Shown here: piece after piece, positions 3,901-19,765 of the stretch
Layout of the letters: each line of letters begins with the position of its first letter
How positions within the stretch are numbered: the stretch's first letter is position 1
Virus record (IMG/VR): IMGVR_UViG_3300025066_000039
Coordinates: 1-52,774 of that record
Source of the DNA: a virus
Taxonomy: Duplodnaviria > Caudoviricetes
Strand: one strand, 5' to 3'
Length of the DNA stretch: 52,774 nt
Program-made: the position numbers and the translations under genes
Notes under the pieces: generated by a model
Told to the model about the DNA's origin: nothing
Databases searched by the model: none
What the model saw: only the letters and a program-made list of their open reading frames with translations

Positions 3901-3908
3901 TATAAATA
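3901..3908 (+). promoter_or_regulatory. T4-type late promoter TATAAATA
   Basis: Perfect gp55 consensus in the divergent intergenic region. Confidence 0.8.
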
Positions 3909-4932: not shown

Positions 4933-4940
4933 TATAAATA
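4933..4940 (+). promoter_or_regulatory. T4-type late promoter TATAAATA
   Basis: Perfect consensus just upstream of gp53. Confidence 0.65.
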
Positions 4941-4944
4941 ATAT

Positions 4945-5982
4945 ATGTTTGAACATTATCCAAAAATTGATTATAAGTTTATAAATGAAGACGGGCAGAT
5001 TACTAATTTAGAAATTGTTGATGTTTTTAGAAATGTTTCTATTAAAAAAGAAACATTAAAGAATTCTTCAAATTTTAGATACCATGTAGTAGGCGATGGT
5101 GACACTCCCGAACAAATTGCGGTTGATTTATATAATGATTCTTTTTTGTGGTGGGTAGTATTATTAACAAACGGAATAATTGATAAAAACCAAGAATGGC
5201 CTAAAGATACTAAAGAAATAAATAGAATATTTGATGAGTTCTTAGACGGTAGTGTTTATTTTATAGTAGAAAATCCGGCTATACAAAAAGATGATATTAT
5301 GGTTAAACGAGATGTTGATAAGACTGGTTCAGTTGACATAGAAATCTTTGGTATTATTAACGAATATGATAAACATCTTCATAAAATTAAAATAAAGACT
5401 GATAGGTCTGAAGGAACATTTGAAGAGAATGATGAATTTTATCTTTTTCGCCGGGATGCGGCAAACAAGTGGGATACCGTTAGTGGAATGGGACTTACTG
5501 CATGTGCCAAGCAAACATTAGGATCTACCGCTGGATGCACTCCAGTTGGATATTTAGATTTCCCTTGTGGGACTGGACCCTACTGTGCAACTGCGGGTTC
5601 TACCTATGGAATTATTAGGAAAAAATCAACATTTAAAAGTGCAGTAAAACAATTTGAAGTTGATGGTGTTCCCATTGATCCATATGCTGTTCCAAATTCT
5701 ATAGGCGGAGCAACGGGAAGTTATTATAGTGGTGCCGGGCAAAACATATGCGGTTTAACAAGTACAGTTTTATATAAGTATATTGAAGGTTCATTGCAAA
5801 GCAATCATCCAGCAATTAAAGTAATAGGGGAGGGTGCGGATATTATCAGAAAAAATGATGATAGACGAACTATTAAAGTTCTTACTCCAATTATAGTGCG
5901 AAAAATTGTAGGAGAGATAAAGGCAGTTATGAATTCTACTGTTCCTCCCGGAACCACAAAATATATAGAATTCGATTTCTAA
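4945..5982 (+). CDS. gp53: Baseplate wedge protein gp53 (LysM-like) with internal insertion
   Basis: MFEHYPKIDY..YHVVGDGDTPEQIAVDLY..WWVVLLTNGIID..EWP..NDDRRTIKVL. Confidence 0.88.
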   Translation: MFEHYPKIDYKFINEDGQITNLEIVDVFRNVSIKKETLKNSSNFRYHVVGDGDTPEQIAVDLYNDSFLWWVVLLTNGIIDKNQEWPKDTKEINRIFDEFLDGSVYFIVENPAIQKDDIMVKRDVDKTGSVDIEIFGIINEYDKHLHKIKIKTDRSEGTFEENDEFYLFRRDAANKWDTVSGMGLTACAKQTLGSTAGCTPVGYLDFPCGTGPYCATAGSTYGIIRKKSTFKSAVKQFEVDGVPIDPYAVPNSIGGATGSYYSGAGQNICGLTSTVLYKYIEGSLQSNHPAIKVIGEGADIIRKNDDRRTIKVLTPIIVRKIVGEIKAVMNSTVPPGTTKYIEFDF

Positions 5983-6004: not shown

Positions 6005-8188
6005 ATGAGTAGTTCAACATTAGCACACAATCGTGGATATAGTATTGATGTATCGAAAGTATACATACGAAAAATGAGTTCGGGTGAAAAATATCATATT
6101 GTAGATGATGGCGAGGAAACAGGCAATATGGGATCTTTGCTTTTGACCTTGCGTATTGATGAAAGTATATTAAGTTCGGTAATTACAGGAAATATTGTAA
6201 TAAAAAATCCAGGAAAGGCCCTTGAAAAATTTAAAATTTCTGGTCAAGATGAAATAATTCACATCGAAATGAAAACACCACATCTTGAAGGTTCTGAGCA
6301 GGAATTAGAATTTTGTATAGTTTCGGTAAATGAATTTGGCCAAGGAGCAGATACCCTAGGCAAACTGGGCGGGGGCATTAAAGATAACAAAATGCAACTT
6401 CATTTTATGTCATGTGAACCAATGTATCTTGATATTTCTGATTGGAAAGGTGGGGAGGGTGAACTTTTTAATCAAGATATGTTTATGAAAATTGCATCAA
6501 AAGGTGTTAATTTGGGTGCGATTGGGGATTGGTTAAACTTGAATGTAGAAGGGGGATTAGTTAATGCTATTGCACCAAAATATTTTGAAGGGAAAAACGG
6601 ATGGGTATGTGGTAAACAAAAAGAAGGTATGGATATAGAAAATACTCATAATGGAATATGGTTAAAAACAAATTCTCAATTATATCCTTGGGGCAAAGAA
6701 ACAAATTCTATGACTCTTATGCAACTTATGAAAAATATGGCAGAAAATGCAATAGACGAAGATGAAACTTGGTGTAATTATGTTTTTTATCATGATTTTG
6801 ATAAATGGCATTTTAAATCTATAAAGAATATGGTTGAGGAAAATAAAAATGACATCCCGCGGGGACAAGATGCAGGAGATATTCAAACCACTTCTAGGGC
6901 AGTATATGGCATAAAAGATGGAATAAGTTCAAAAGAAGAATCCGATACAGGTGACCCAAAAATAATGACTAGCAGGAGTATTATTGCTTCACCAAATCAT
7001 TTAAAATTGTGGAAAGATGGGGTATATGCTTCATATTATTATCATGTGGAGCCAGATTATTCAGATCCATATAATTATTATATGGATACTGCGACCGTGC
7101 ATAAAAATAAATTTGTAACTTATGAATATCATAGAGATTGGGAAGAAAAATCGTGGAATACTTTTACGGTAGAAAAATTTAAATTTCTACCCGAAGATAT
7201 TAAGACGGTAATTGATTCAGAGAAACCAAATAAAAATTTAAAATTTAGAAACATACCAGAGGTATATGGATATTTTGAAAATGCATATAATAGCAAAAAC
7301 CCACACAATAAATATGATTTTCTTTCCAGTAGGCAGGGGAACGGGTCTCTTGGCAAACGAAATGATGTTGTGTGGCAATCAATGTCTGATCAAACAAATT
7401 TAAAATTGGAAACTATCCAAACAATTCAACAAGATATTATTGGTCCAACAAGAGAAAATTATTTGGAATATATTTTTAAAAAGAATCTTAAAGAAAAGTG
7501 GAATATATATCGACATACAATATGCTGTGATAAGATTGATGAAAAACGACAATTCCTAGCAGTTATTGATGATGCAAAATTAATACAAGAAAATGGTAAG
7601 GGTGGCATATATGAATATTCGTGGAGAGAAGTGGAAATGTGGCCTAAACAATATATTAATTATATTAATGAGGATGAAGAAGAAGAAGAAGTTCAAGCAG
7701 AAATTGTATCTCATCCAGATGCACCCATAACCATTGCTGTTGTTCCAGAGTCTAGAGGTGGATTAAAGGGTGTTATGAGTGATGAAGAAAATAATATAAC
7801 AGGTAAAGATGGTGCATATAATATTAATGAATTGTTAAATCATCAAGTAGGGGATGATGTATATACTGGTCCTGGTATCAATGCGGCCGAGATTGAAGAA
7901 TCATACCCAGATGGAAATGATTATCCAGACGGGCATCAAATGATGCCAGTAGGGGGGTATTGGAAAATTGGAGATGATCCCTGTCTAATGCGTGAAGAAG
8001 GTGAAATGTGTGGCCAATTTTGGAAACATATTGTAGAGATGAATGTTATACCGGCAGATATGCTAGAAACAATTTCTCCTATTAAACCTGATCCCGAAGA
8101 AGATATGGTGGATATTGAAATTCCAGATAGAATATATTTCTTTGATGTTCAAAATGCACACGATGGATTATGTAGTTGTCCAAACTAA
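6005..8188 (+). CDS. gp27-like baseplate hub, N-terminal part, plus an extra C-terminal domain
   Basis: LRIDESILSSVITGNIVI..G.DEIIHIEMKTP and YVFYHDFDKWHFKSI motifs of T4-like hubs; follows gp53; lacks the hub C-terminal GD..L..G motif. Confidence 0.6.
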   Translation: MSSSTLAHNRGYSIDVSKVYIRKMSSGEKYHIVDDGEETGNMGSLLLTLRIDESILSSVITGNIVIKNPGKALEKFKISGQDEIIHIEMKTPHLEGSEQELEFCIVSVNEFGQGADTLGKLGGGIKDNKMQLHFMSCEPMYLDISDWKGGEGELFNQDMFMKIASKGVNLGAIGDWLNLNVEGGLVNAIAPKYFEGKNGWVCGKQKEGMDIENTHNGIWLKTNSQLYPWGKETNSMTLMQLMKNMAENAIDEDETWCNYVFYHDFDKWHFKSIKNMVEENKNDIPRGQDAGDIQTTSRAVYGIKDGISSKEESDTGDPKIMTSRSIIASPNHLKLWKDGVYASYYYHVEPDYSDPYNYYMDTATVHKNKFVTYEYHRDWEEKSWNTFTVEKFKFLPEDIKTVIDSEKPNKNLKFRNIPEVYGYFENAYNSKNPHNKYDFLSSRQGNGSLGKRNDVVWQSMSDQTNLKLETIQTIQQDIIGPTRENYLEYIFKKNLKEKWNIYRHTICCDKIDEKRQFLAVIDDAKLIQENGKGGIYEYSWREVEMWPKQYINYINEDEEEEEVQAEIVSHPDAPITIAVVPESRGGLKGVMSDEENNITGKDGAYNINELLNHQVGDDVYTGPGINAAEIEESYPDGNDYPDGHQMMPVGGYWKIGDDPCLMREEGEMCGQFWKHIVEMNVIPADMLETISPIKPDPEEDMVDIEIPDRIYFFDVQNAHDGLCSCPN

Positions 8189-8196
8189 GATAAATA
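8189..8196 (+). promoter_or_regulatory. Late promoter variant GATAAATA
   Basis: 7/8 match in the 15-nt gap before the 2604-aa gene. Confidence 0.5.
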
Positions 8197-8203
8197 GTAT
8201 ATA

Positions 8204-11200
8204 ATGTATAGCGGTAAATCATGTTGTTGTGACTGTGGGGATAAATTCTGTAAAGGAACTGAATATTTCTATGATGATACCAGTATAGGTTGCCCTATTT
8301 GCGCGGTCGGAATAAGTTCAATGGCCGGTGGTACTTTCGCTTGGCCGGGTGCAGAACCAAAACATAAAATGCCTAATTCCGATCCGTGGGATGGAGATGA
8401 TCTTTTTATAGGAGAACCCTGTTGGTCGTCTGATGTGTGTGAGGATTATCATGAATGCGTTGATGATATGTTCCCCCCACATTATTATCAACTTCTTTCT
8501 CCTATGGGACCTCTTCCTTGGACTCCCCAAGCATTTGAAGATTGGATAGACAATTATCACGGTCCATTAGTTCCAAAGGGCGATTGTACAATGCACTGTA
8601 CAGAAGAAAATATTGGATGTCATAAAATTGCATTTGTTGGTGCATTAGGTTATCAAGATAATATTGATGGTATGGCCCACTTAACCATACCACCTTATCC
8701 TAGTAGTACTGAAAATGTTTATGATAATTGCGAAAATTGGAAATGGATAAGAAATTGGGTTGTTGATGGTGGAAAATTAGTAATCATGATTGATCCAACT
8801 TATGGAAGTTGGACCAATTCGTGGTGTCTTGATCAAGACACTGGAAAGGATTTGGGATGTTGGTTAGACTGTATAGACCACCCCGAAGATTGTTTATGTG
8901 ATTGCGATTGGCCTTCTTCAGACGAAGTTGTTACTGATGTTGTTGAAGAAGATTTTAGGCGGTTTGCTCATTTCTGTGCAACATCAGAGGAAGAATGGCA
9001 GGCAGGATGTAATGCACACGATGAGCAAGGATGCATCGGGGTGCCTATAGGAGATGGTCTCTTTAATATTGTTCCTGAAACTGAATTTTATTATTCAGAA
9101 ATAGTACATTATCAGGATGGTGACGGGAATATTCATGATGACTATATGAATCTTCCTGAAGGTATAACCCTCGACAAGTATATTCCGTGTTGTCAACAAA
9201 CAATTAAGCCGTTTGTTAAAGACGGTGAAGATAGTGGGGGCAATTCAACCGGCGTTGTTCCACTTTCCTTTAGAACTAATGAGGCTGCACCACTTTATCC
9301 TGTCAACGAAGGTGTCGGAATAGTGGGATCGTGTGGTAAATCGGGCCAGGATCCTAACCCATGGTCAAACGCATGCACGGTTGTATATAAACAACACGGT
9401 AAAGGTGCAGTTGTTGTTATTTATGATTACACGGTGTGGGGCACTTATCAAATGAACTCGAATGTTTTCCCACCGAGAGATAATTTTGTTAATGGACTTA
9501 CTGAAGAAGAAAATAAACTAATGGCGTGCAACAACGATTTCTGGACATTTTTGTGTCAAGATTTTTTGCAAGAAGAAGGATATTCGCCTTCTAGTTGTTC
9601 AGAGCCTATCTTTTGGGACAATAAAGGTCCAGATTATGAGGGAAATGAATGTCTACCAAAAGCCGCATGCTGTAAACCAGACGGAACATGTGCTGATTTG
9701 AATGTGTGGGAGTGTGGGGCAATACCGCTGTCAACTTATCATGGTTGGCAATCAAAGAGCGATTGTACTTCCTCATCCACTTGTATTGGTTGTGATGGTG
9801 ATGGGGAAGGGACTTCTTGCAACACTTGTGCAGATATTGGTGGTGGGTGTGAAGAAGCAAAAAAAGGTGCATGTTGTCATTGTGCTGAAGGAAGTTGTCC
9901 AGAATCTCCTGAAGATGATTCATGCCCATTTGGATATTGCGAACAGTTATTTGGAAATATATGTGTAGAGGGCGAAGAGAAATGTTGTTGTGTTGATGGA
10001 CAGTGTATTCCAGAAGATGAAGATTGCGGAGGCATAGACACGGATGTTTGTTGGCCTACAAATGAATGTTCGACACATGAACGATGTATGAGACATGATG
10101 GGAGTGATTCAACTTCGTGGCCGTCGTGCTACAACGATAATTGCTGTGAACTTGTTTGTAGAGGGTGGTATTGGGAAGACCCGGACGGTTTGACGGGCCC
10201 TGAAGGGTGGACGCCACATCACACATATCAAAATATGCCCATTCCAGCTGGAATAGATCCTTCGGAAGAGACCATTGAGATGTTTAGGGTATTATGCGAA
10301 GATGATGGAGTGTGGTTATATGATAATGAGAACGAAATTATCGGAATAACTTGGGATGGGGGAGATGATGTCGCAGGCAATCAAACATATGGCGTCTTGG
10401 AAATGGAATCGTGTAATATGCATGGAACTTTTAATCCTGAATGGGGTGCTGGTTTTGCTCATAAGCATCCTTGGCCGGGATGGCAAGGAACTTATGAAAG
10501 CAGAAGGTGGTCGGGACGAGGTATCGTTTCAACAACCCCATTTCACCCAACGGTGCCTGCTTATACCTGTGGGTATTGGTCCAGTTTGGATAGAACTTGT
10601 AAACCGCCCGAAGAACACCCCGATTGGGATACATTGATACATGGTCATTCAGCAACTGTAAAATGGATAGACGGTGAACAAATCCCATGTAATGGTTACT
10701 ATACAGATGAGAATGATAATATTGTTCTACAGCCTCCATGTGGATATCCGTTGGATTATGCCAACTGGGGATGTGATGGATGTTGCACACCATACGGCAA
10801 TTGTTGTACGGGGACTTGGATGGCCTTTGAACCACTCAATGAAGAAGGAGAATCTCCCCCATATGAAGTTGGTATTGGAAGCACAGCAGACGGGAACTTC
10901 TACAAGGGTGGATGTGGTATAAGAAGACAGTTTGATTGTGATACTTTTCGTGGCAACCTTAATTGGCAAGGTGGCACGGGAGAATATTCATATGGAGAGA
11001 AATGGAGTGTAGAAATAATTGATGGGGTAGAAAGACACTATTACCACCACAAAGCGTACAACCAAGGCAATCCAACACTACCCGGCCTAACATATGATGC
11101 TGTGATGTTCAACGAGTGGCATGGTATTGTTGAAGGTTCTCCAAACTGTGATGATGGAACAAGTTGGCTTCCATACGAAAAACTTGATGATATTATACGA

Positions 11201-14200
11201 GGAGAAGGGGCAACCGGCAGTATTTGTTACTCCTGTGAACAAAATAGTGATTGTGAAGTAGAAGGCGAATGTTGCCATAAACAATTACTCGGCGATGGCT
11301 CGTGGGATTCACTGGGATGTCTGCCCTGTTGGCCAGAGCATCCATATGGTTCGACTGATTGCCAGGCCTTCTCTGGTACAGAGGGTGGCAGTTATTTCGA
11401 CAGAAACCCATACGGATGTCCTTGTTATAATAACAATGATTGTTGTCAGTGTCAAAGCACAGACCCAGACGGTCTTGGAATCACTGGTGCTAATAATTAT
11501 GACCCAGACTGCGATTGCAATTGTAAATGCCAGGCTTCAGATCCATCGGGTGAGAATTATAGTGCGACATGTCGGTGTGAAGGGGAAACTGGAGAGAATA
11601 AACCATACTGCTCGATGATGGTGCCAGACGAATGGGATGTGCCAGGAAATTGGCCTATCAAGTCCGATTTTAAATGTGTTCAATGTTTATCAGATAGTCA
11701 TTGTGATGCAGACCAGTGTTGTGAGCATGGTACTTGTAAAGATCCAGAGGAAGTGTCATGTTTTAGTGATGATGATTGTTGTTTTTTAGCACCATGTTGT
11801 TCCGTGTATCCAACCCCATGTGGTGAAGATGGAGCATCGAACCCTTCAGGCACTTGTTCAGTTTGTCAAGAATGTGATAGAAATGAAGATTGTTTTGATC
11901 ATCACTGTTGCAACGATGGAACATGTGGTACTTGCATTCCTTGTGCGCCGGGTTCTTCGGGCGGATGCCTTCCGGGTAGGGGATGGAATGAACCATGCCA
12001 AGAGGATGAACAATGTGCAGGTGATATGTGTTGCCGTAATAATATAGTTCTTCCAAGTGAAATACATGGTCGATGTTGGGATTGTGAAGGGGTTAATCCA
12101 TATACACAACCTTGTGAGCCATGTGGATTAACAGGTACTTGTTGTGTCAGGGGATTATCGGGCCCCACATCAACGGTGCCATCATGGCGATGTCGCGACG
12201 ATGATGGAGAAGGGTTGAGGTGGTTAGAGTGTCGTAATATGCCAAGTTGGCAACCATTAAATGGAGAATATGCACCATCCGTTGATGATACTGACTATAG
12301 GTGGACTAGCCAAATCGATAGATGTGAAGATGTATTAATTGTTGACATTAATGGAGAACCCATTGAGTACAACTTATGCGGAATGTCAAACAGTGAGTTT
12401 TCTCAAATTCAGTATAAACCAGGACGACTTGATTGGGACGGAGATTGTTTACCTTGTCAATCAAATTGTCCATATGGATTCTTTTGTTCTCAGTTTGGTC
12501 CTACGGGGTCTTATGCTTCTGGTTTAACAGAAGATCCCAGAGTTTGTCGGCCATATGATGATTTTTGTTGGGGGTCTACTGCTGAAGGAATGACGGCCGA
12601 CAGTGCTTGCTCCTCTTGCAACTCAGAAGTTATTCCAGGTAATTATGATTGTGTGCAATGTAGTGGTGAATGGGATTTTGATGATTATGATGGAGTGACT
12701 GGTGATTGTCAACTTGGTTGTTCGACTTCTGGTTATGTAATGATTGATGGAACTACTGGTGCTTGTTGTATTCGTGGATTTAATCATCTACATGCTGGCA
12801 TATGTGAAGATTTAACTTATGATGCATGCCTTGCAAAAGGTATAATAGAAGAAAATTATGGAGAACCTGATATTGCATGGTATGGAATAAACACGAAATG
12901 TGATGATGTTGCTACAGAAGAAGGTAAATTATGTCCAGAAGGATATTGTTGTGATTGTGATACACCTGTACACAATCACCCACAAGAGCCGGAGTTTGGG
13001 TGGGGTTCGGACGGCCACGGACCATTATGGCCTGAATATGGTTGTGACAATAGTTGGATGTGGCATTATGATAGTGGGCACAGTGGTGATCATCCATGGC
13101 GTTTTACACACGATATTTTGTATAAAGTTGATGATGGTGCAATCTGTGGTGAATTTGAAGACGCCGATGATAACGGTTATAAAGCCCCAATTCCAATTGA
13201 ATGTGAATCTTTTTGTTGTGGTGTTGGAGGCGGAGTCTTCGGCTACAAGTATGATGATACTTGCAACAATAATTGGCCAAATATGTGCGAGGATTTGCCC
13301 GACAGCTGGGGAATTCCTGAGTGTTTGTGCGATGACGGCACTTTAAAGGATGGTGCAGTATGTGGCGAAGTTCGATATTGTGGGGATTATGTTTCACCAG
13401 AACATCTCAGTGATATTGCAGAGTGGACTTGTGAATGTGACAATGCAATCATTAAAAATTGGCAAGGGGAAGCCCATGTTATTCGAGAAGATACAATGAA
13501 TTGTTTTTGCCCATTCAATTGCCTTGAAAACAGAGATAATCCATGTGGCGATTGGGTTGGTGGTGGTAATTGCCAGAATGAATGGGCGAATTATAGTTTT
13601 ACTTGTACTGGTGCATGTAGTACCCCTCTTGGTGCATGTTGCCACGGTTCGTCTGAGAGGTCATGTAGTATAATGTCTCAAGCAGATTGTGAAGAATTGT
13701 CGATAGTGGAATGGGAGTATTATGCTCATACATGGCCGTATGAGCAAGATGTCAATAGTTGGCCATCGAATCCAGATACAAGGAACAATCAAATAACATA
13801 TTTCTATGAAGGACTATGGTGTGACCAAATTCCAGAAGGTTCTCCTTGCATGGATTATGCAGAGAAGATTAAATGTCATGAATGCAATCATGATGGTGAT
13901 TGTATACACACACATTCCGATACTTGGAGTTTCAATATTGAAACCCCATCGTGCCGAGAAAATGAATTTGGTATTCGTAAATGTAGTAGTACCATATGGT
14001 GTAATCAGCCTGAGTTAGTGATTGGCTTTGAATGGTGCGCGTCGGCGGGAAATATATGCGAAGAAGGAGAAAAATGTTGTCACGACACGCGGGAATGTGT
14101 TTCAATCGAGGAAGATTGTGACTGTGGACTGTGGTGTCAATTAACTGGGCAAGGATGTTGTGGTTTAAATGGTAAATGTGGAGAATGTGATCCAGACTGT

Positions 14201-16018
14201 TCTCCACATGGTAAATGTTGTTCAAATATCATATGGGAGGAATCCCGTGAAGAATATTCTAATACTTTTTGCACCAGACAACAAAGACTAGCGGGTGAGT
14301 GTTGTACACAGGATAGGACAGATGGGGGAGATGGATGTTTAGAAAACGAAAATATGTCCCCGATTAAAATATTTGCTAATGTGTGTACCGATTGTTTAGG
14401 TGAATGTTATGCATCTGGGCATCATACTGGTTCGGTGACTCATCCAAATACTACAATGTATGATGAAGAATATTTATTTCCGAACGATATTAATCCCAAT
14501 TGTGAATGGGACGGTTGCACCGAAGTCACAAACATATATGATTGCTGTTGGAGATGTGAACACGAAGATCCACTGGGTGATAGGAAAGTTCGCGAACTCA
14601 ACGGAAAAATCGTTCCTTGGTATTTCACACCTGAACCCATATGTTCTAGTTGGCAAACGGATAACGAAAATTGCCCTTGCTATGAAATTCACGGTTGCTA
14701 CGAGAGCTGTTGCCAATCCCCCGGCCTTGAAGGTGGTGACCAATCTTGTTGTCCGTATTGCGCGCATTGGGTATGCAGTGGTTGGAATGTACCAACATGT
14801 GAAGAACTGTGTATAGACACAGATTCTCTCTGGTATAACCCAGAGGATGACCAATGCCAAACTTGTGAATGTTTACATATTAAGGCAGAACACCTCGGAG
14901 AATCTTTGTGTCCAGATACGGGGGCATGTTTTGATCATACATGTTATCCAAAATGGTATGGAGATGTAAGTGAAGGACAATGTGATGGTGGTGGGTGTGG
15001 TGCAACTGGAGAATGCAGTGCCGCAGGATATTTAACATATGAACCTTTTATTGTCGGTGAAATTGCAGAAGAAACGGACATTTTGTGGTGTGCCGAGATG
15101 TTTGGAAATATATGTTCGACAGGTGGCACAGGACCGGCTGATGATGAGAAATGTTGCTTCAATGGAGAATGTATTCCAGCTGGCGAAAGTTGTACAGGTT
15201 TTCCTTCCGCGGAGTGGATATATTCTCCTGATTGCGAAAATTGTCAGACGATTTATGATGGTCTTACTGGGCAGTATGCATGGTTAGATAAAAATTTACC
15301 AAATTTAAATGGCAGTATATGTGGGGAAATTGATCCTGTTCCTATAATGCCTTGTGATGATTGTTCTCTCCTTAAAGACTATGATCCTTGTTATAGTAAC
15401 AGGCCAAGGTCTGAAGGTGGTGATGGGCACTGGGCGGGTGGCACATGTATTAAACCTAATGGTGAATGTGGACCTTGTTCTAATTTTTGTGAGGGATGTG
15501 GCCCCTGTGAATGCGAAACAGATGAAGATTGTCCAGAAGGTATGGTTTGCACCGATAGTGGTGTATGTAAATCTGAGGATTTGTCTTGTGTGGTAAGTGA
15601 TGATTGTGATAATGATGAGATGTGCTGTTTGAATGAAAAATGTGTTGAGTGTGATTCTCTTTGTGAAACTCATGAGGATTGTCCAGAAGGTATGGTTTGT
15701 ATAAACGGACAATGTGTTGAAGGAATATTATGCGAAACAGATGAAGATTGTTGGGAACATGGATTGTGTTGTAGTGGTTATAATGAAGGATATAAAGTTT
15801 GCGAAGAATGTGATATAGAATGTGCTACAAACATTGACTGTCCCTATGGGTTGTGTTGTAGTCCTGATGAAGCAACTGGAGCAATGAAGTGTGTGGATTG
15901 TGGGTGTAGTTGTTTAGGAGAAATGTATCAACATGAGTGCTGTATGCAATCAAATGATATCACATCTGGCCAGATGTGTTGGAAAGAAGACGAAGATTGT
16001 AGCACATGCACACCATAA
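8204..16018 (+). CDS. Giant Cys-rich acidic repeat protein (2604 aa), predicted baseplate/appendage protein; N-terminal GATase-like/DUF4350-type domain, GACC and CxxDxDC repeats
   Basis: Uninterrupted 7.8-kb ORF; WVVDGGKLVI...HGKGAVVVIYD...NNDFW; tandem CETDEDCPEGMVC-type repeats at the C-terminus. Confidence 0.8.
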   Translation: MYSGKSCCCDCGDKFCKGTEYFYDDTSIGCPICAVGISSMAGGTFAWPGAEPKHKMPNSDPWDGDDLFIGEPCWSSDVCEDYHECVDDMFPPHYYQLLSPMGPLPWTPQAFEDWIDNYHGPLVPKGDCTMHCTEENIGCHKIAFVGALGYQDNIDGMAHLTIPPYPSSTENVYDNCENWKWIRNWVVDGGKLVIMIDPTYGSWTNSWCLDQDTGKDLGCWLDCIDHPEDCLCDCDWPSSDEVVTDVVEEDFRRFAHFCATSEEEWQAGCNAHDEQGCIGVPIGDGLFNIVPETEFYYSEIVHYQDGDGNIHDDYMNLPEGITLDKYIPCCQQTIKPFVKDGEDSGGNSTGVVPLSFRTNEAAPLYPVNEGVGIVGSCGKSGQDPNPWSNACTVVYKQHGKGAVVVIYDYTVWGTYQMNSNVFPPRDNFVNGLTEEENKLMACNNDFWTFLCQDFLQEEGYSPSSCSEPIFWDNKGPDYEGNECLPKAACCKPDGTCADLNVWECGAIPLSTYHGWQSKSDCTSSSTCIGCDGDGEGTSCNTCADIGGGCEEAKKGACCHCAEGSCPESPEDDSCPFGYCEQLFGNICVEGEEKCCCVDGQCIPEDEDCGGIDTDVCWPTNECSTHERCMRHDGSDSTSWPSCYNDNCCELVCRGWYWEDPDGLTGPEGWTPHHTYQNMPIPAGIDPSEETIEMFRVLCEDDGVWLYDNENEIIGITWDGGDDVAGNQTYGVLEMESCNMHGTFNPEWGAGFAHKHPWPGWQGTYESRRWSGRGIVSTTPFHPTVPAYTCGYWSSLDRTCKPPEEHPDWDTLIHGHSATVKWIDGEQIPCNGYYTDENDNIVLQPPCGYPLDYANWGCDGCCTPYGNCCTGTWMAFEPLNEEGESPPYEVGIGSTADGNFYKGGCGIRRQFDCDTFRGNLNWQGGTGEYSYGEKWSVEIIDGVERHYYHHKAYNQGNPTLPGLTYDAVMFNEWHGIVEGSPNCDDGTSWLPYEKLDDIIRGEGATGSICYSCEQNSDCEVEGECCHKQLLGDGSWDSLGCLPCWPEHPYGSTDCQAFSGTEGGSYFDRNPYGCPCYNNNDCCQCQSTDPDGLGITGANNYDPDCDCNCKCQASDPSGENYSATCRCEGETGENKPYCSMMVPDEWDVPGNWPIKSDFKCVQCLSDSHCDADQCCEHGTCKDPEEVSCFSDDDCCFLAPCCSVYPTPCGEDGASNPSGTCSVCQECDRNEDCFDHHCCNDGTCGTCIPCAPGSSGGCLPGRGWNEPCQEDEQCAGDMCCRNNIVLPSEIHGRCWDCEGVNPYTQPCEPCGLTGTCCVRGLSGPTSTVPSWRCRDDDGEGLRWLECRNMPSWQPLNGEYAPSVDDTDYRWTSQIDRCEDVLIVDINGEPIEYNLCGMSNSEFSQIQYKPGRLDWDGDCLPCQSNCPYGFFCSQFGPTGSYASGLTEDPRVCRPYDDFCWGSTAEGMTADSACSSCNSEVIPGNYDCVQCSGEWDFDDYDGVTGDCQLGCSTSGYVMIDGTTGACCIRGFNHLHAGICEDLTYDACLAKGIIEENYGEPDIAWYGINTKCDDVATEEGKLCPEGYCCDCDTPVHNHPQEPEFGWGSDGHGPLWPEYGCDNSWMWHYDSGHSGDHPWRFTHDILYKVDDGAICGEFEDADDNGYKAPIPIECESFCCGVGGGVFGYKYDDTCNNNWPNMCEDLPDSWGIPECLCDDGTLKDGAVCGEVRYCGDYVSPEHLSDIAEWTCECDNAIIKNWQGEAHVIREDTMNCFCPFNCLENRDNPCGDWVGGGNCQNEWANYSFTCTGACSTPLGACCHGSSERSCSIMSQADCEELSIVEWEYYAHTWPYEQDVNSWPSNPDTRNNQITYFYEGLWCDQIPEGSPCMDYAEKIKCHECNHDGDCIHTHSDTWSFNIETPSCRENEFGIRKCSSTIWCNQPELVIGFEWCASAGNICEEGEKCCHDTRECVSIEEDCDCGLWCQLTGQGCCGLNGKCGECDPDCSPHGKCCSNIIWEESREEYSNTFCTRQQRLAGECCTQDRTDGGDGCLENENMSPIKIFANVCTDCLGECYASGHHTGSVTHPNTTMYDEEYLFPNDINPNCEWDGCTEVTNIYDCCWRCEHEDPLGDRKVRELNGKIVPWYFTPEPICSSWQTDNENCPCYEIHGCYESCCQSPGLEGGDQSCCPYCAHWVCSGWNVPTCEELCIDTDSLWYNPEDDQCQTCECLHIKAEHLGESLCPDTGACFDHTCYPKWYGDVSEGQCDGGGCGATGECSAAGYLTYEPFIVGEIAEETDILWCAEMFGNICSTGGTGPADDEKCCFNGECIPAGESCTGFPSAEWIYSPDCENCQTIYDGLTGQYAWLDKNLPNLNGSICGEIDPVPIMPCDDCSLLKDYDPCYSNRPRSEGGDGHWAGGTCIKPNGECGPCSNFCEGCGPCECETDEDCPEGMVCTDSGVCKSEDLSCVVSDDCDNDEMCCLNEKCVECDSLCETHEDCPEGMVCINGQCVEGILCETDEDCWEHGLCCSGYNEGYKVCEECDIECATNIDCPYGLCCSPDEATGAMKCVDCGCSCLGEMYQHECCMQSNDITSGQMCWKEDEDCSTCTP
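15694..15751 (+). repeat. Dispersed repeat copy A (shared with 36485-36545)
   Basis: GGTTTGTATAAACGGACAATGTGTTG-AAGGAATATTATGCGAAACAGATGAAGATTGT. Confidence 0.9.
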
Positions 16019-16482
16019 GAATCAAACATGGAAGGGAAGTTGTGATTTCAGATAAGGAAGATAAATTTATAGTAATATATAATAGAACTCATCCAAAAAC
16101 ATATGGGTTATATACCATGCTCCTCATGGTTAAATGTAAAAAAACAGATAATGTTGTTGTAGACTTCTATAACAACTATATTCAAGCCAGAACAGGAAAT
16201 GAGTCTGTTGGAACGACTATGACAATGATGAAAGGCATATTTGAAGATGTATTAGAATACATTGAAACATATAGTCCATCTAGCATGACTTTTACTTTAG
16301 AGTTAAATAAACACAAAAAGGCTAAAAAATATAAAAACAAATTTGCCAGAGAACAGATATTCACAACAATAGCAAATAGACTTAAAAAGAAGACAGGACA
16401 TTCTTATGATAAAATTATCACACAAAAACCCCGTAACAGATATCAAGTTAAATTTAACATAATATACAACGATTCATTATAA
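16006..16482 (+). CDS. Hypothetical basic protein (158 aa), start uncertain
   Basis: Fills the gap between flanking genes; Lys-rich and Cys-poor, unlike its neighbours. Confidence 0.6.
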   Translation: MHTIRIKHGREVVISDKEDKFIVIYNRTHPKTYGLYTMLLMVKCKKTDNVVVDFYNNYIQARTGNESVGTTMTMMKGIFEDVLEYIETYSPSSMTFTLELNKHKKAKKYKNKFAREQIFTTIANRLKKKTGHSYDKIITQKPRNRYQVKFNIIYNDSL

Positions 16483-16485
16483 ATA
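16478..16485 (+). promoter_or_regulatory. T4-type late promoter TATAAATA
   Basis: Perfect consensus 9 nt before the 16495 start. Confidence 0.7.
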
Positions 16486-16494
16486 TAAAGACAC

Positions 16495-17406
16495 ATGGAT
16501 AAAAAAGTATTAATATCAAGATTGTCCGACTATGCAAATAAAACACATGTCGGACCCGACTATTCAACTAAAGCATGGTCGGTCAGAAAGCAAATAACTC
16601 ATGGCCACGATGCTATATGGGACAAATATCCCTGCGCGAATCCAGAAGGGCCAGTAGACAATTCTGATTGTGGTGATGATAATCCTTTGTGCAATTGTCC
16701 ATGTAAGGAATTAATGCCGGATTCTGATGAACAGATTGAAAGAATCAATAGTTCTATAAATGAAAATGATGGTAGTTTCTGGAATACTCTTTTCGGGGAA
16801 GGCATTGGTGGATTTTTAGGTGACTTCTTCGGTGGATTGTTCGGTGATGATGAAGGCGATGGAGTAAGTAAAGAAAATCTTGTCGAACCAACATATGAAG
16901 AAATTGAGGAAGCAAAACAAAGCATTAAGGAATGTGATTATATCTTAGAAGCACTTCCCGATGGTGAAGATTGGTTAGGATGTATATGGCATAATGATGA
17001 TCATCCAAGTAGTTGTAATTGTCCTTGTGTTGGGAAAAGATTTGGCGAATATCTTCAATATACAAGAATGCAATCAACATATTGGGATACTCCTCCACAA
17101 CAACCATTGTGGCGAAATGCTCAAATGGGTTTAATTACCTCTAATAAACTGTCTATAAATATTCATGGCGATTTGACATTAAGACCTGGAACTATGGTTT
17201 TTGTTAGAGATTTTAGTGGTGATGGCACCACATTATCTAAAATTGGTGGTAGGTGGTTAGTAGAATCAATTATTCATAATATAGGTGCATTTCCTGTCGC
17301 ACACGAAATGCAATTAAATCTGATGAGGGATACATCACCAGTTGATTTAAGTGAATCTTCCATATGGGAGGGTATGGCGGATTATCTTAAAAAACTTATA
17401 GGATAA
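16495..17406 (+). CDS. gp27/gpD-like hub C-terminal part with Cys-rich N-terminal extension
   Basis: LSINIHGDLTLRPGTMV...IGGRWLVESIIHNI...MQLNLMRD, the typical closing motif of gp27/gpD/VgrG hub domains. Confidence 0.7.
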   Translation: MDKKVLISRLSDYANKTHVGPDYSTKAWSVRKQITHGHDAIWDKYPCANPEGPVDNSDCGDDNPLCNCPCKELMPDSDEQIERINSSINENDGSFWNTLFGEGIGGFLGDFFGGLFGDDEGDGVSKENLVEPTYEEIEEAKQSIKECDYILEALPDGEDWLGCIWHNDDHPSSCNCPCVGKRFGEYLQYTRMQSTYWDTPPQQPLWRNAQMGLITSNKLSINIHGDLTLRPGTMVFVRDFSGDGTTLSKIGGRWLVESIIHNIGAFPVAHEMQLNLMRDTSPVDLSESSIWEGMADYLKKLIG

Positions 17407-17466: not shown

Positions 17467-17934
17467 ATGGCCCCTGAAAGTATACATACCGATTTAAATA
17501 TTCATTTTAGTAAAAATGAATTTACTAGCGATGTCTCTTTGGTGAAAGATGTATATTCGATAAGGCAATCTTTAATAAATATCATCATGACAATTCCGGG
17601 TGAAAAGCCATTTAGAAGAAATTTTGGCACAAGAATCAATGATTCTTTGTTTGATAATTTTAATTATGTTGACAGTATTCCCATGATACAACAAATAAAA
17701 TTTACCATAGGCCAATTTGAACCCAGAATTAGAGTAGAAGATGTAATAATAAATGATTCACCAATATCCGAAGAAACTCCTATAGTTCCAGGACACCCCG
17801 AATCGGCATCGAGGGCGCAGGTAAGCGATACTAATCAACTATTTTTATACATTTCTTATTTTTTATTAAAACGATCGGTTGGTGGTAGTGCTTTACGAGA
17901 TTCAATCAGCATAGGATTAACAAAAACAAGGTAA
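17467..17934 (+). CDS. gp25: Baseplate wedge subunit gp25
   Basis: DLNIHF..SIRQSLINIIMTIPGEKPFRRNFG..QFEPRIRV. Confidence 0.93.
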   Translation: MAPESIHTDLNIHFSKNEFTSDVSLVKDVYSIRQSLINIIMTIPGEKPFRRNFGTRINDSLFDNFNYVDSIPMIQQIKFTIGQFEPRIRVEDVIINDSPISEETPIVPGHPESASRAQVSDTNQLFLYISYFLLKRSVGGSALRDSISIGLTKTR

Positions 17935-17938
17935 TTAA

Positions 17939-19765
17939 ATGGCAGATAATACAAATATACAATTAGGGACATTAGACTTTCTTTCCATTAAAGAAAGTCT
18001 TATCGATTATTTAAAAACTCAAGACACATTAAAAGATTATAATTATGCAGGGTCTGCAATACAAGTTTTACTTGATGTTCTAGCATACAATACCATGTAT
18101 TATGGTAGATATTCTAATATGATTGCTAATGAAATGTTTTTAGATTCTGCACAAAGAGTAGAATCGGTTATATCATTAGTAAAACCGTTAGGTTATGTTG
18201 TTCCGGGAAGAACTTCTTCCACTTCTAGAGTAAAAGTAAGACATGGCGATAATGCAATAATACCAAAATATACAAAATTTTCTGGATATAAAGAATCGGG
18301 AACGCCTTATACTTTTTATAGTGTTAATGACGCAGCGATTGACAACATGGAGAATGAAGTAATAATTAATATTTATGAGGCCGCTTCTTTAGTTTTAATG
18401 TCTCCACTCTTAGTAGATGTTAGTAATCAAAAATCATTTTTGTATGGACTTGATATTGATATATCAACTATAACAGTAGAAGTTTTAAATTTAGAAACTG
18501 ATGAATGGGATACTTGGACGAAAGTAGATAATATTCATTCTGGATTAGATGAAAATAGTAAAGTATATTGGTTGGAACGAAGTGAACTTGGTTTCTTTGT
18601 TGTTTTTGGTGGTAATGTTGGAAGTGAATCATTAGGCCCAATTCAACCTGCTAATCCTGATGCTTCAATTGGTGTAACGCAAATAGGAAAACAAATTACT
18701 GATAATGATTCTGTGCGAATTTCTTATCTTAGAAGTAGCGGAAGAGCCGGAAATGATGTTGGAAGTTGGTCCATACACGGATTTCCAGATGCAGAAGTAG
18801 AAAGCCTTTCAGATGGAACTGGATTATCTTCTGGTGGTACAGATGAACCAAATTTAGATATGATTAAATTTTTTGCCCCTAAATGGTTTGCAGCGCAAGA
18901 TAGAGCAGTTACAGCAGAAGATTGTAAAGCATTGTTGGCTGCAAATGGATTTGTAGGAACTGCAAGCAATCCATATGAAAAATTTAATGTGTGGGGTGGT
19001 GAAGAAGAAAATCCACCCATGTATGGTAGAGTTTTTGTATCAGTAAATGAAGAACAATCCGAAGATTTAATTGGTGCGGCCACTAATGCAATGAATATAC
19101 TAAAAGATAAAACTTGTGTTACTATTTTACCAGAATTTAAAAGCCCCGAATATGTTGTTGCAGTTATTGGGGGGGATATTCCATTTGAGGGTCTCGCAAC
19201 CAATCAATCCAGTAGTACAATTATGAACAAACTTATTTCTAACTTAACGACAAAATATTCTAAAAGTTTTAATAAATCATTTAGTATATTTAAAATATCA
19301 GAAGATATCAATAAAGTTGATGACTCTCTTTCGTGTTCTTCTTATGATTTAAATTTTAATATTGATGTAAAAACTATAATGGGCCATGACGAAAGTATAA
19401 GGCCCATTTTTCTTAATAGTAAATTATCTCATAGTTCATTTACCACTTCTGAATTTACAGTTGGTAGTAGATATGATAATGATAATTCTATTCCATCCAA
19501 TTTAAGACTAAAAATAAGAATAGACCAATGGATAGATAGTAAAACTTTAAGTCTCGAAGGTTGGTATATAAAAGATAATGGATTGCTATCTATAATTAAA
19601 AGTGTTGGCACATTTAAACCAGAAATAGGAGAAATAATCATACACAAAGGAGTTTCCAGTGAACCCTTTACTTGTAGAGTTTCTCCTTTGTCTTCTACTT
19701 TCGATGCAACTAGAAATATAGTTTCTGAGATTGATGTTAGTGAACTTAATTTGATTGGTGCATAA
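17939..19765 (+). CDS. gp6: Baseplate wedge subunit gp6
   Basis: LDFLSIKESL..DYNYAGSAIQVLLDVLAYNT..NEMFLDSA..AQDRAVTAED..VWGGEE. Confidence 0.95.
   Translation: MADNTNIQLGTLDFLSIKESLIDYLKTQDTLKDYNYAGSAIQVLLDVLAYNTMYYGRYSNMIANEMFLDSAQRVESVISLVKPLGYVVPGRTSSTSRVKVRHGDNAIIPKYTKFSGYKESGTPYTFYSVNDAAIDNMENEVIINIYEAASLVLMSPLLVDVSNQKSFLYGLDIDISTITVEVLNLETDEWDTWTKVDNIHSGLDENSKVYWLERSELGFFVVFGGNVGSESLGPIQPANPDASIGVTQIGKQITDNDSVRISYLRSSGRAGNDVGSWSIHGFPDAEVESLSDGTGLSSGGTDEPNLDMIKFFAPKWFAAQDRAVTAEDCKALLAANGFVGTASNPYEKFNVWGGEEENPPMYGRVFVSVNEEQSEDLIGAATNAMNILKDKTCVTILPEFKSPEYVVAVIGGDIPFEGLATNQSSSTIMNKLISNLTTKYSKSFNKSFSIFKISEDINKVDDSLSCSSYDLNFNIDVKTIMGHDESIRPIFLNSKLSHSSFTTSEFTVGSRYDNDNSIPSNLRLKIRIDQWIDSKTLSLEGWYIKDNGLLSIIKSVGTFKPEIGEIIIHKGVSSEPFTCRVSPLSSTFDATRNIVSEIDVSELNLIGA

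Follow-up and report, generated by a model that had tools for sequence, protein, structure and literature searches.

A gp27-type baseplate hub probably divided between two genes in uncultured T4-like phages

We have analyzed the baseplate hub genes contained in the virus record IMGVR_UViG_3300025066_000039 of IMG/VR. The window is the whole of this record, 52,774 bases in length, from an uncultured marine T4-like phage, and a T4-type module for the tail and baseplate is encoded on its + strand. Four successive open reading frames (ORFs) of this strand are the subject of our study. The first, which we term hubN, lies at 6005-8188 and encodes 727 amino acids. It is followed by a giant gene (8204-16018) for an acidic protein of 2604 amino acids that includes 282 cysteines and has the N-terminus MYSGKSCCCDCG, and then by an ORF for a basic protein of 158 amino acids (16006-16482), belonging to no family, whose first 13 nucleotides coincide with the last 13 of the giant gene. 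The fourth, hubC, lies at 16495-17406 and encodes 303 amino acids, and 8,306 nucleotides separate the stop of hubN from the start of hubC. The T4 late-promoter-like octamer TATAAATA is found at 16478-16485, nine nucleotides before the hubC start codon. A preliminary description of this DNA gave the same four ORFs and proposed that hubN and hubC are the two halves of one hub. Our overall explanation, to which we assign a probability of about 80%, is a gp27-type baseplate hub with its polypeptide divided over two genes at a hyper-plastic insertion site.

The division is seen directly with PHROG 350, a profile of 436 positions with the label 'tail protein' and also 'T4-like gene cluster 15'. This makes three co-linear matches in the window. 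Nucleotides 6101-6334 correspond to profile positions 22-97 and 6704-7258 to positions 167-326, and both of these lie within hubN (E = 6.8e-14), extending as far as residue 418. The third, with 17113-17346 corresponding to positions 349-431, lies within hubC (E = 1.6e-6) and includes the closing motif of the hub, so that jointly the two genes account for positions 22-431. The closing motif, INIHGDLTLRPG...GGRWLVESIIH, had been assigned to the second ORF, and it is indeed located in the 303-amino acid protein, at residues 221-232 and 251-261. The family is characterized by a single polypeptide of ~420-450 amino acids, while here the match is divided over ORFs of 727 and 303 amino acids. Because of this division, over ORFs that are 8.3 kb apart, we treat the pair as a putative split variant of PHROG 350 and not as an ordinary member.

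In other phages the whole profile is matched by one ORF, as in Prochlorococcus phage P-SSM2 (positions 16-433) and Pelagibacter phage HTVC008M (5-433); T4 gave no match to it. A tblastn search shows relatives of the P-SSM2 protein to be present in 536 phage records, and in 405 of these at least 80% of that protein is covered. The PHROG 350 gene is directly upstream of gp5, annotated as baseplate hub and tail lysozyme, in P-SSM2, ACG-2014f, S-RIM44 and P-HM1. In HTVC008M and Vibrio phage K397 it comes right after gp48 and gp53, which is the position occupied by hubN and hubC in the window. Profile-profile comparison using hhalign places residues 1-347 of hubN on columns 12-265 of an alignment of kyanovirus hubs (probability 98, E = 2.6e-13), and residues 195-303 of hubC on columns 336-423 at its C-terminal end (probability 98, E = 1.9e-13). 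The hub protein of the Kyanoviridae (P-SSM2 PSSM2_018) and of HTVC008M (AGE60363) is homologous over both halves of the window hub, and is likewise preceded by gp48-like and gp53 genes. It differs in that the Kyanoviridae hub is one gene followed by gp5, whereas the window has two genes, an extra gene between them and no gp5 that we could find. The window hub is also the larger, with ~380 extra residues in hubN and ~190 in hubC. The extra part of hubN (residues 348-727) matches neither the Kyanoviridae alignment nor the barrel of hubC (hhalign probability 0.1), and judged by sequence hubN therefore contains no hidden closing part. The two profile methods agree that the hub motifs are divided over two ORFs, as had been proposed, and the possibility raised at the same time that one ORF might hold a full hub finds no support in the hubN sequence. 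Neither hubN nor hubC had a tblastn match at 1e-5 in 50,697 phage records, and their alignments used as profiles against the PDB sequences returned chance rows only.

Relatives in which the two halves are fused provide further evidence. A search with the hubC alignment against 1.84 billion representatives gave 266 proteins at E ≤ 0.001, and the best 150 of the 266 were classed with local hidden Markov models. These 150 comprise 38 stand-alone hubC proteins, 26 single proteins of 977-2118 amino acids with hubN as the N-terminal and hubC as the C-terminal part, 7 small hubs resembling those of the kyanoviruses, 28 in which hubC follows an unassigned N-terminal extension, 34 fragments shorter than 200 amino acids, and 17 others. 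On an alignment of 20 single-chain 'big hubs' the parts of the window hub fall in order. The first part of hubN, residues 1-347 (6005-7045), takes columns 9-295; from PHROG 350, hhalign and the structure model this is the predicted N-terminal part of a gp27-type hub, with the first tube-like barrel and inserted domains. Residues 348-508 (7046-7528) take columns 296-448 (hhalign E = 1.3e-44), and form an expansion common to the big hubs that contains an invariant CC (C507/C508). In hubC, residues 20-156 take columns 1257-1366 and the barrel columns 1367-1466. The former lie within the region of hubC that carries two conserved cysteine motifs (residues 1-194, 16495-17076; alignments A1 and A5; E = 3.5e-49 to the big hubs), and the latter is the closing β-barrel, the second tube-like domain (residues 195-303 and the stop codon, 17077-17406; PHROG 350 positions 349-431). 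The big hubs share residues 1-508 of hubN and ~35-303 of hubC with the window, including the cysteine motifs.

The slot between gp53 and gp25 is also the site of the big hubs. In the three loci read (L038:3488-7948, L039:8001-12374 and L040:6090-11057) a single hub ORF of 1457-1655 amino acids fills the slot, which is otherwise empty, and gp6 follows gp25. They differ from the window hub in being one polypeptide with an unrelated insert of ~700-1,400 residues, in lacking residues 509-727 of hubN, and in having no separate Cys-rich gene. The inserts have no Pfam family and no likeness to window proteins; using hhalign, columns 449-1256 (~800) matched neither hubN 509-727, nor the N-terminal domain of the giant protein, nor gp5. 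Residues 509-727 of hubN (with the stop codon, 7529-8188) constitute a C-terminal domain that is found in split forms only, and that matched neither hubC nor the hubs of the Kyanoviridae or of the big-hub group. It ends in F.FD..NAHDG.C.C. For this domain the ESM Atlas gave no score above 0.90 and little feature overlap, providing leads only (GpP_4th, YQBQ and Phage_GPD). P0140, a metagenome protein of 1012 amino acids related to hubN, has a ~300-residue Cys-rich insertion inside its own C-terminal domain. Pfam gave nothing above its cut-off for hubN, hubC, the giant protein, the 158-amino acid ORF, seven of the corresponding middle proteins of relatives or six big hubs.

The split arrangement is not peculiar to this genome. 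We collected 18 related IMG/VR loci, 17 through hubC and one through hubN, and both halves are visible in 13 of them (L003-L005, L008-L011, L013, L014 and L016-L019). All 13 have the order gp53, hubN, middle ORF, hubC, gp25, gp6, maintained at 35-85% protein identity. A second clade was found by a search with P0180, a stand-alone hubC protein from a different branch, which gave 28 further loci, 26 being informative in that the upstream region is visible and two uninformative. In 24 of the 26, hubN (665-870 amino acids where complete) is directly adjacent to hubC (285-372 amino acids), again between gp53 and gp25. The remaining two (L067 and L068) have an ORF of 2247 or 2329 amino acids between the halves, beginning with CCC or CC. 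The C-terminal domain of hubN, including the ending F.FD..NAHDG.C, is shared by both split clades and is lacking in the big hubs. Both halves are well conserved, with 48 invariant columns in alignment A1 and 78 in A2. In a tree of the hubC region the window belongs to an all-split group of five rows with a Shimodaira-Hasegawa-like approximate likelihood ratio support of 94, and the second clade to an all-split group of 13 with a support of 97. The label 'split' requires 6-9 changes on this tree, although truncated gene calls may be mislabelled. The split is a trait of the lineage, located at a hyper-variable insertion site.

Such conservation is difficult to reconcile with an assembly artefact, or with the decay of a hub gene into which foreign DNA had been inserted. 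Two features of the locus might have suggested this. The middle gene has a G+C content of 0.40-0.45, compared with 0.33 in its flanks, and, of the loci compared, only the window and its nearest relative (L002/L019) contain the 158-amino acid ORF. However, contigs assembled from other sequencing runs bridge all three junctions without differences, removing the concern over misassembly that had been raised. The junction between hubN and the giant gene is bridged by X2 (6245-9306) and X6 (7929-8308), that between the giant gene and the 158-amino acid ORF by X2 (15736-16254) and X6 (15736-16481), and that between the latter and hubC by X2 (16225-17106) and X4 (16452-17077); X2 may be the source sample of the window. 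As the junctions are bridged, and as the arrangement is kept in all 13 informative loci of the window's clade and, lacking the insert, in 24 further loci with both halves conserved, assembly error and gene decay are excluded.

DNA similar to that of the window is present in marine metagenome runs from 23 studies. Contigs of three other runs (X4, X6 and X9) diverge from the window at 8135-8212 and 8573-8681, in the region where hubN ends and the giant gene begins, which suggests co-occurring strains with a different middle gene. In an X4 contig 74 bases of hubN at 6494-6569 are replaced by 17 other letters. This is a variable loop, at approximately residues 164-188, that is gappy in the alignment of relatives also.

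A single mature chain could be imagined to arise from the two halves by post-transcriptional or post-translational joining, through recoding, read-through or protein trans-splicing. The halves lie on one strand, and in the second clade they are only 2-23 nucleotides apart or overlap slightly as called by script. Yet each half has its own start codon, their spacing differs between second-clade loci, and in the window 8.3 kb and two ORFs intervene. Moreover, neither an intein nor any other Pfam family was found in hubN or hubC at E ≤ 0.01, although no search was aimed specifically at inteins. We regard such joining as very improbable.

How two separate chains might associate was explored by structure prediction for a 1:1 pair of hubN and residues 35-303 of hubC, with our own alignments as input. 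The predicted complex scored 0.83, 0.84 and 0.83 in the interaction prediction score from aligned errors (ipSAE), compared with 0.09 for the best of three controls. In calibration 58 of 80 solved complexes and 2 of 110 mismatched pairs attained the mark set for this score. Between runs at least 85% of the contacts, which number 575-639, are the same, and the partner predicted local distance difference test (pLDDT) score is at least 73. When modeled together rather than alone, the pLDDT rises from 47 to 74-76 for hubC and from 43 to 70-72 for hubN. In the predicted complex the strand of the closing motif (hubC 257-262) is paired with hubN 49-55, within the first barrel of hubN. The contacts of hubC end at residue 511 of hubN, and therefore comprise the part that is common to the big hubs, with hubN 509-727 outside the interface; the region of hubC 1-194 forms part of it. 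The suggestion of a heterodimeric hub in the preliminary description thus draws support from the co-linear profile, from single-chain relatives with the same order, from the predicted co-folding and from ~40 informative loci, and we consider that the split hub is most likely functional as a two-chain protomer.

The fold indicated by the hubN model is of the gp27 type. In a Foldseek search with the hubN model, T4 gp27 chains rank first with E about 1e-6, and the other top rows are mostly hub or VgrG proteins from phages, tailocins, contractile injection systems and type VI secretion systems. Using VIA-align the model has 47 chains at Z ≥ 8, again mostly hub proteins. It superimposes on T4 gp27 (1k28_D) with Z = 13.1 and a root-mean-square deviation of 4.1 over 225 of 364 residues, covering model residues 8-334 and chain residues 4-360. 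The best structural matches, from Z = 13.1 down to 8, are T4 gp27 (PDB 1K28, 2Z6B and 9MKB), Mu gp44, the P1 and pyocin R2 hubs, PVC/Afp and the N-module of VgrG. Every solved hub matched is a single chain. The model of hubC is ordered only in a five-strand barrel, residues 200-287, which aligns to the last third of hub chains with Z = 6.3-7.5: pyocin R2 hub residues 191-325 (Z = 7.0, root-mean-square deviation 2.1), P1 hub 208-337 (Z = 7.0), T4 gp27 216-363 (Z = 6.8) and Mu gp44 189-338 (Z = 6.3). No Foldseek match for hubC was found at E ≤ 0.001. The two tube-like β-barrels and inserted domains that characterize the hub fold are all accounted for, with the caveat that the models have pLDDT of 43 and 47 and that the match of the hubC barrel is tied with unrelated barrels.

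Comparison of each half with T4 gp27 had been proposed earlier, and the outcome is mixed in that the hubN model matches it by fold whereas the sequence profiles do not reach it. T4 gp27 and the wider family of hub-fold proteins differ from the window pair in being single chains and in having no sequence-level match to it, and the gp27 gene of T4 lies elsewhere in the genome. We consequently file hubN and hubC as a putative hub on the basis of predicted fold and PHROG 350, and not as a member of the Pfam gp27 families. Bacillus phage 0305phi8-36 provides a parallel in gp147, described in PMC2147016 as a hyperplastic gp27 homologue, in which the gp27-like core accounts for part of a far larger protein that carries added, exchangeable domains. 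The window hub similarly has a gp27-like core with large additions. Those of gp147 are at the N- and C-termini of one gene, and the part of the paper available reports no split. Within the accessible text of the literature, supplements apart, neither a split hub nor the Cys-rich proteins described here are reported, including in PMC12801897, the Goslar preprint, PMC2147016 and PMC7029224.

In the Kyanoviridae the hub gene is followed by gp5, which raises the question of the spike. Six-frame searches of the window gave no match at E ≤ 1 to Gp5_OB, Phage_base_V or PAAR (PAAR_motif PF05488). Three kyanovirus gp5 proteins, which gave mutual matches in control loci, matched neither the window nor its relatives (L002-L019). 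The search was extended to other members of these groups, adding A6, a profile of five kyanovirus gp5 OB domains that likewise matched nothing in the window. In the 157-kb record of a big-hub relative (that of L039), judged 87% complete, there was no match to Gp5_OB, Phage_base_V or A6, and a 146-kb record (80% complete), from a relative whose hub halves adjoin, gave none to Gp5_OB or A6. Another eight, smaller records from these groups were also negative in these searches, in which the positive controls HTVC008M and P-SSM2 were found. The statement that the window has no recognisable gp5 or PAAR protein thus holds in six frames, and no gp5 OB fold was found in the 87%- and 80%-complete relatives. 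This is a lineage with no recognisable gp5 by these sequence searches. The gene tables of the pelagimyophage paper could bear on this point.

A number of observations weigh against the divided gp27-type hub and the absence of a gp5. The single-chain models are of low confidence, with hubN at pLDDT 43 from 9 sequences and hubC at 47 from 11. The Pfam gp27 models Phage-tail_1 (PF09097) and Phage-tail_2 (PF09096) detected nothing at E ≤ 1 in P-SSM2, HTVC008M or the window, and in the control they match T4 with E = 3.4e-142 and 7e-126. Kyanovirus hub, hubN and hubC all fail to match T4 gp27 significantly using hhalign, with probability at most 5.6; the sub-threshold alignments are nevertheless complementary, with hubN 4-331 on gp27 1-286 and the hubC barrel on 287-378. 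Passing the complex test shows a predicted likeness to solved hubs and not binding, since the halves of a split gene can pass by way of solved hubs, and our own alignments were used. The backbone of the hubC-region tree is poorly supported, and neither the direction, fission or fusion, nor the number of events is polarised. With regard to the spike, the gp5 of P-SSM2 itself scores below Pfam's own cut-off, so that a very divergent spike could be missed, and the window is judged to be 24% complete as a genome, so that gp5 could lie elsewhere.

On structure alone a fuller fold within hubN is also possible, given that its model spans gp27 residues 4-360, and hubN carries ~380 further residues of unassigned fold. 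It could then be a complete hub by itself, with hubC an independent baseplate protein that shares a barrel domain. That barrel is a common fold, and the hubC model scores hubs no better than PilZ or HerA barrels (Z = 6-7.5). We nevertheless consider this explanation distinctly unlikely. The additional residues of hubN nowhere resemble the closing region, hubC matches precisely the last ~80 residues of the single-gene hub, and the 26 single-chain relatives (among the best 150 of 266) hold the two in order. The predicted interface is very large, and the strand of the closing motif joins the first barrel of hubN.

The divided hub contains a set of conserved cysteines. Those of hubC form two motifs, C47, C59, C66, C68, C70 and C147, C163, C174, C176, C178. 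Fifty loci or proteins have both the CC of hubN (C507/C508) and the first hubC motif (C47, C59, C66, C68), and six loci of one subclade that has adjacent split hubs (L058, L062, L063, L064, L066 and L069) lack the two. Four have CC with a partial motif, and in one case hubN is truncated. In the predicted complex both lie within the interface. This hints that they constitute a joint site, though the pattern amounts to a single evolutionary loss. In the subclade lacking both motifs, hubN ends N(A/S)GVC and not NAHDG.C.

We turn now to the gene that lies between the halves. The giant protein is acidic, with 17.7% D+E and 4.6% K+R, and has no hydrophobic segment. It gave no internal repeats in a self-BLAST at 1e-4, and has no Pfam or PHROG family. 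For its first 520 residues the ESM Atlas again gave scores no higher than 0.90 and little feature overlap, with a ThuA/GATase-like cluster at rank 25 as a lead only. Middle proteins in the 13 loci range from 264 to 2745 amino acids. Relatives of the giant protein, of 721-2745 amino acids, are present in six of these, and the others have an ORF of 264-324 amino acids; this was read in L008, L009 and L013, and assigned in L010, L014, L016 and L018 by spacing and by BLAST figures equal to those of L009 or L013. The longer forms share ~500 N-terminal residues. The short forms lack these, and the three that were read have instead a DxSGS-type motif detected by eye, DxSxS being the metal-site mark of vWA domains; a match to CobT_C VWA with E = 0.043, below cut-off, was found in one of the three. 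Short and long forms share only their first few residues. Of the 11 middle proteins read, two of them from the distant second clade, 10 have CCC within the first 10 residues and the other has CC. The 158-amino acid ORF that follows the giant gene encodes 29 K+R compared with 15 D+E, lies in a stretch of lower G+C content, and may be a recent insertion.

It had been suggested that the giant Cys-rich protein replaces gp5 as the cell-puncturing tip. Relative to the hub gene, the giant gene does occupy the place that gp5 has in the Kyanoviridae, with neither gp5 nor PAAR found in the window. The N-terminal CCC, or CC, is kept across two distant clades, and three chains could set this motif on the three-fold axis. 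However, 24 of the 26 informative second-clade loci and all three big-hub loci have no gene of this kind, and the searched relatives from those groups show no gp5 either, including those that are 80% and 87% complete. As the gene is missing from the majority of split hubs and from each of the three big-hub loci read, the giant protein is dispensable for whatever closes the hub, and it cannot be the general replacement of gp5. Middle proteins vary tenfold in length with only a few residues in common, and in the Pfam scans of the giant protein and the middle proteins of relatives there was no OB fold, β-helix or lysozyme family. We know of no spike that resembles an acidic protein of 2604 residues with 282 cysteines. 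Replacement of the tip is therefore unlikely, while its decoration by the giant protein, the other option that had been offered, may still hold. It is more likely that the middle proteins are an optional, fast-evolving appendage that would be attached to the hub and anchored by its N-terminus.

The octamer upstream of hubC overlaps the stop of the 158-amino acid ORF. From its presence it had been argued that the second half has its own TATAAATA and that the split is therefore functional. The octamer is where it was said to be, but its count in the window is not above chance, with seven copies compared with 6.1 expected, and 49 of 100 shuffles reach seven. We have rejected a promoter role on this count. 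Alone it does not show separate transcription of hubC, and is weak evidence for a promoter. Further copies are found at 3901-3908, 56 nucleotides upstream of the start of a 320-amino acid ORF, and at 4933-4940, four nucleotides upstream of the gp53 start. A T4-type late promoter needs normal leader spacing, and the latter copy is too close to the ATG.

The surrounding genes conform to a T4-type baseplate module. First in order, on the reverse strand, are a tape-measure-like gene, a gp26-like hub subunit, a tube-like gene and gp4. The 320-amino acid ORF occupies the gp48 slot, and is followed by a gp53-like baseplate wedge gene (4945-5982, + strand; Pfam Phage_gp53 E = 3.2e-8, phrog_232 E = 2e-24), which lies directly upstream of hubN, a position that is constant in all related loci. 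In most second-clade loci L044-L061 (for example L048:3005-4804) the ORF matching gp53 has ~600 amino acids, compared with 345 in the window, and is weakly similar (E = 1e-4 to 1e-10). Directly downstream of hubC is a gp25-like wedge gene (17467-17934, + strand; Pfam GPW_gp25 E = 7.5e-12, phrog_261), followed by a gp6-like wedge gene (17939-19765, + strand; Pfam Gp6-like_1st E = 7.4e-18, phrog_219 E = 8.4e-82). More wedge and fibre genes come next, with neck genes, the large terminase and the sheath.

Drawing these results together, we propose the following model. The first tube-like barrel and the inserted domains would come from hubN, along with two extensions specific to the lineage, and hubC would add the Cys-motif region and the closing β-barrel. 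The two chains are predicted to fold onto each other to create one hub protomer. By analogy with the solved hubs matched by the hubN model, a ring of three pairs would provide the adaptor between the six-fold tail tube and the three-fold center of the baseplate. The point of division is an insertion site that holds ~70 residues in the Kyanoviridae and ~700-1,400 in the big hubs, and that has become a gene boundary in at least two clades of uncultured phages. In the clade of the window this boundary holds an extra and extremely variable gene, the products of which share the N-terminal CCC, and this might anchor an optional, distal and probably host-binding appendage to the hub. Given that the lineage has no recognisable gp5, a plug or spike function would more likely reside in the conserved extensions of the hub (hubN 348-727 and hubC 1-194) than in the giant protein.

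A more far-reaching joint reading may be entertained, tentatively and with considerable doubt. Many uncultured aquatic T4-like phages would have abandoned gp5 and PAAR, with the Cys-motif modules of the hub (the CC of hubN and the four cysteines of hubC) closing and arming the tip, and the gene boundary acting as a cassette site. Hypervariable proteins of up to 2,745 residues headed by CCC would be plugged onto the three-fold axis there by a shared thiol, metal or disulfide cluster, making a new central device for recognition and penetration.

Few parts of a contractile tail are as conserved as the hub, and here is a natural two-gene hub in ~40 loci from many samples. It shows where the fold can be cut and, presumably, still assemble, at a site that tolerates from ~70 to ~1,400 residues or a whole extra gene. 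Such a site may serve for the engineering of tail tips, and the analysis offers annotation for genes that are now called 'hypothetical'. Taken together, the split and the missing gp5 suggest that abundant uncultured myoviruses of marine and other aquatic habitats build the center of the baseplate differently from T4, and this bears on the way in which they recognize and penetrate their hosts.

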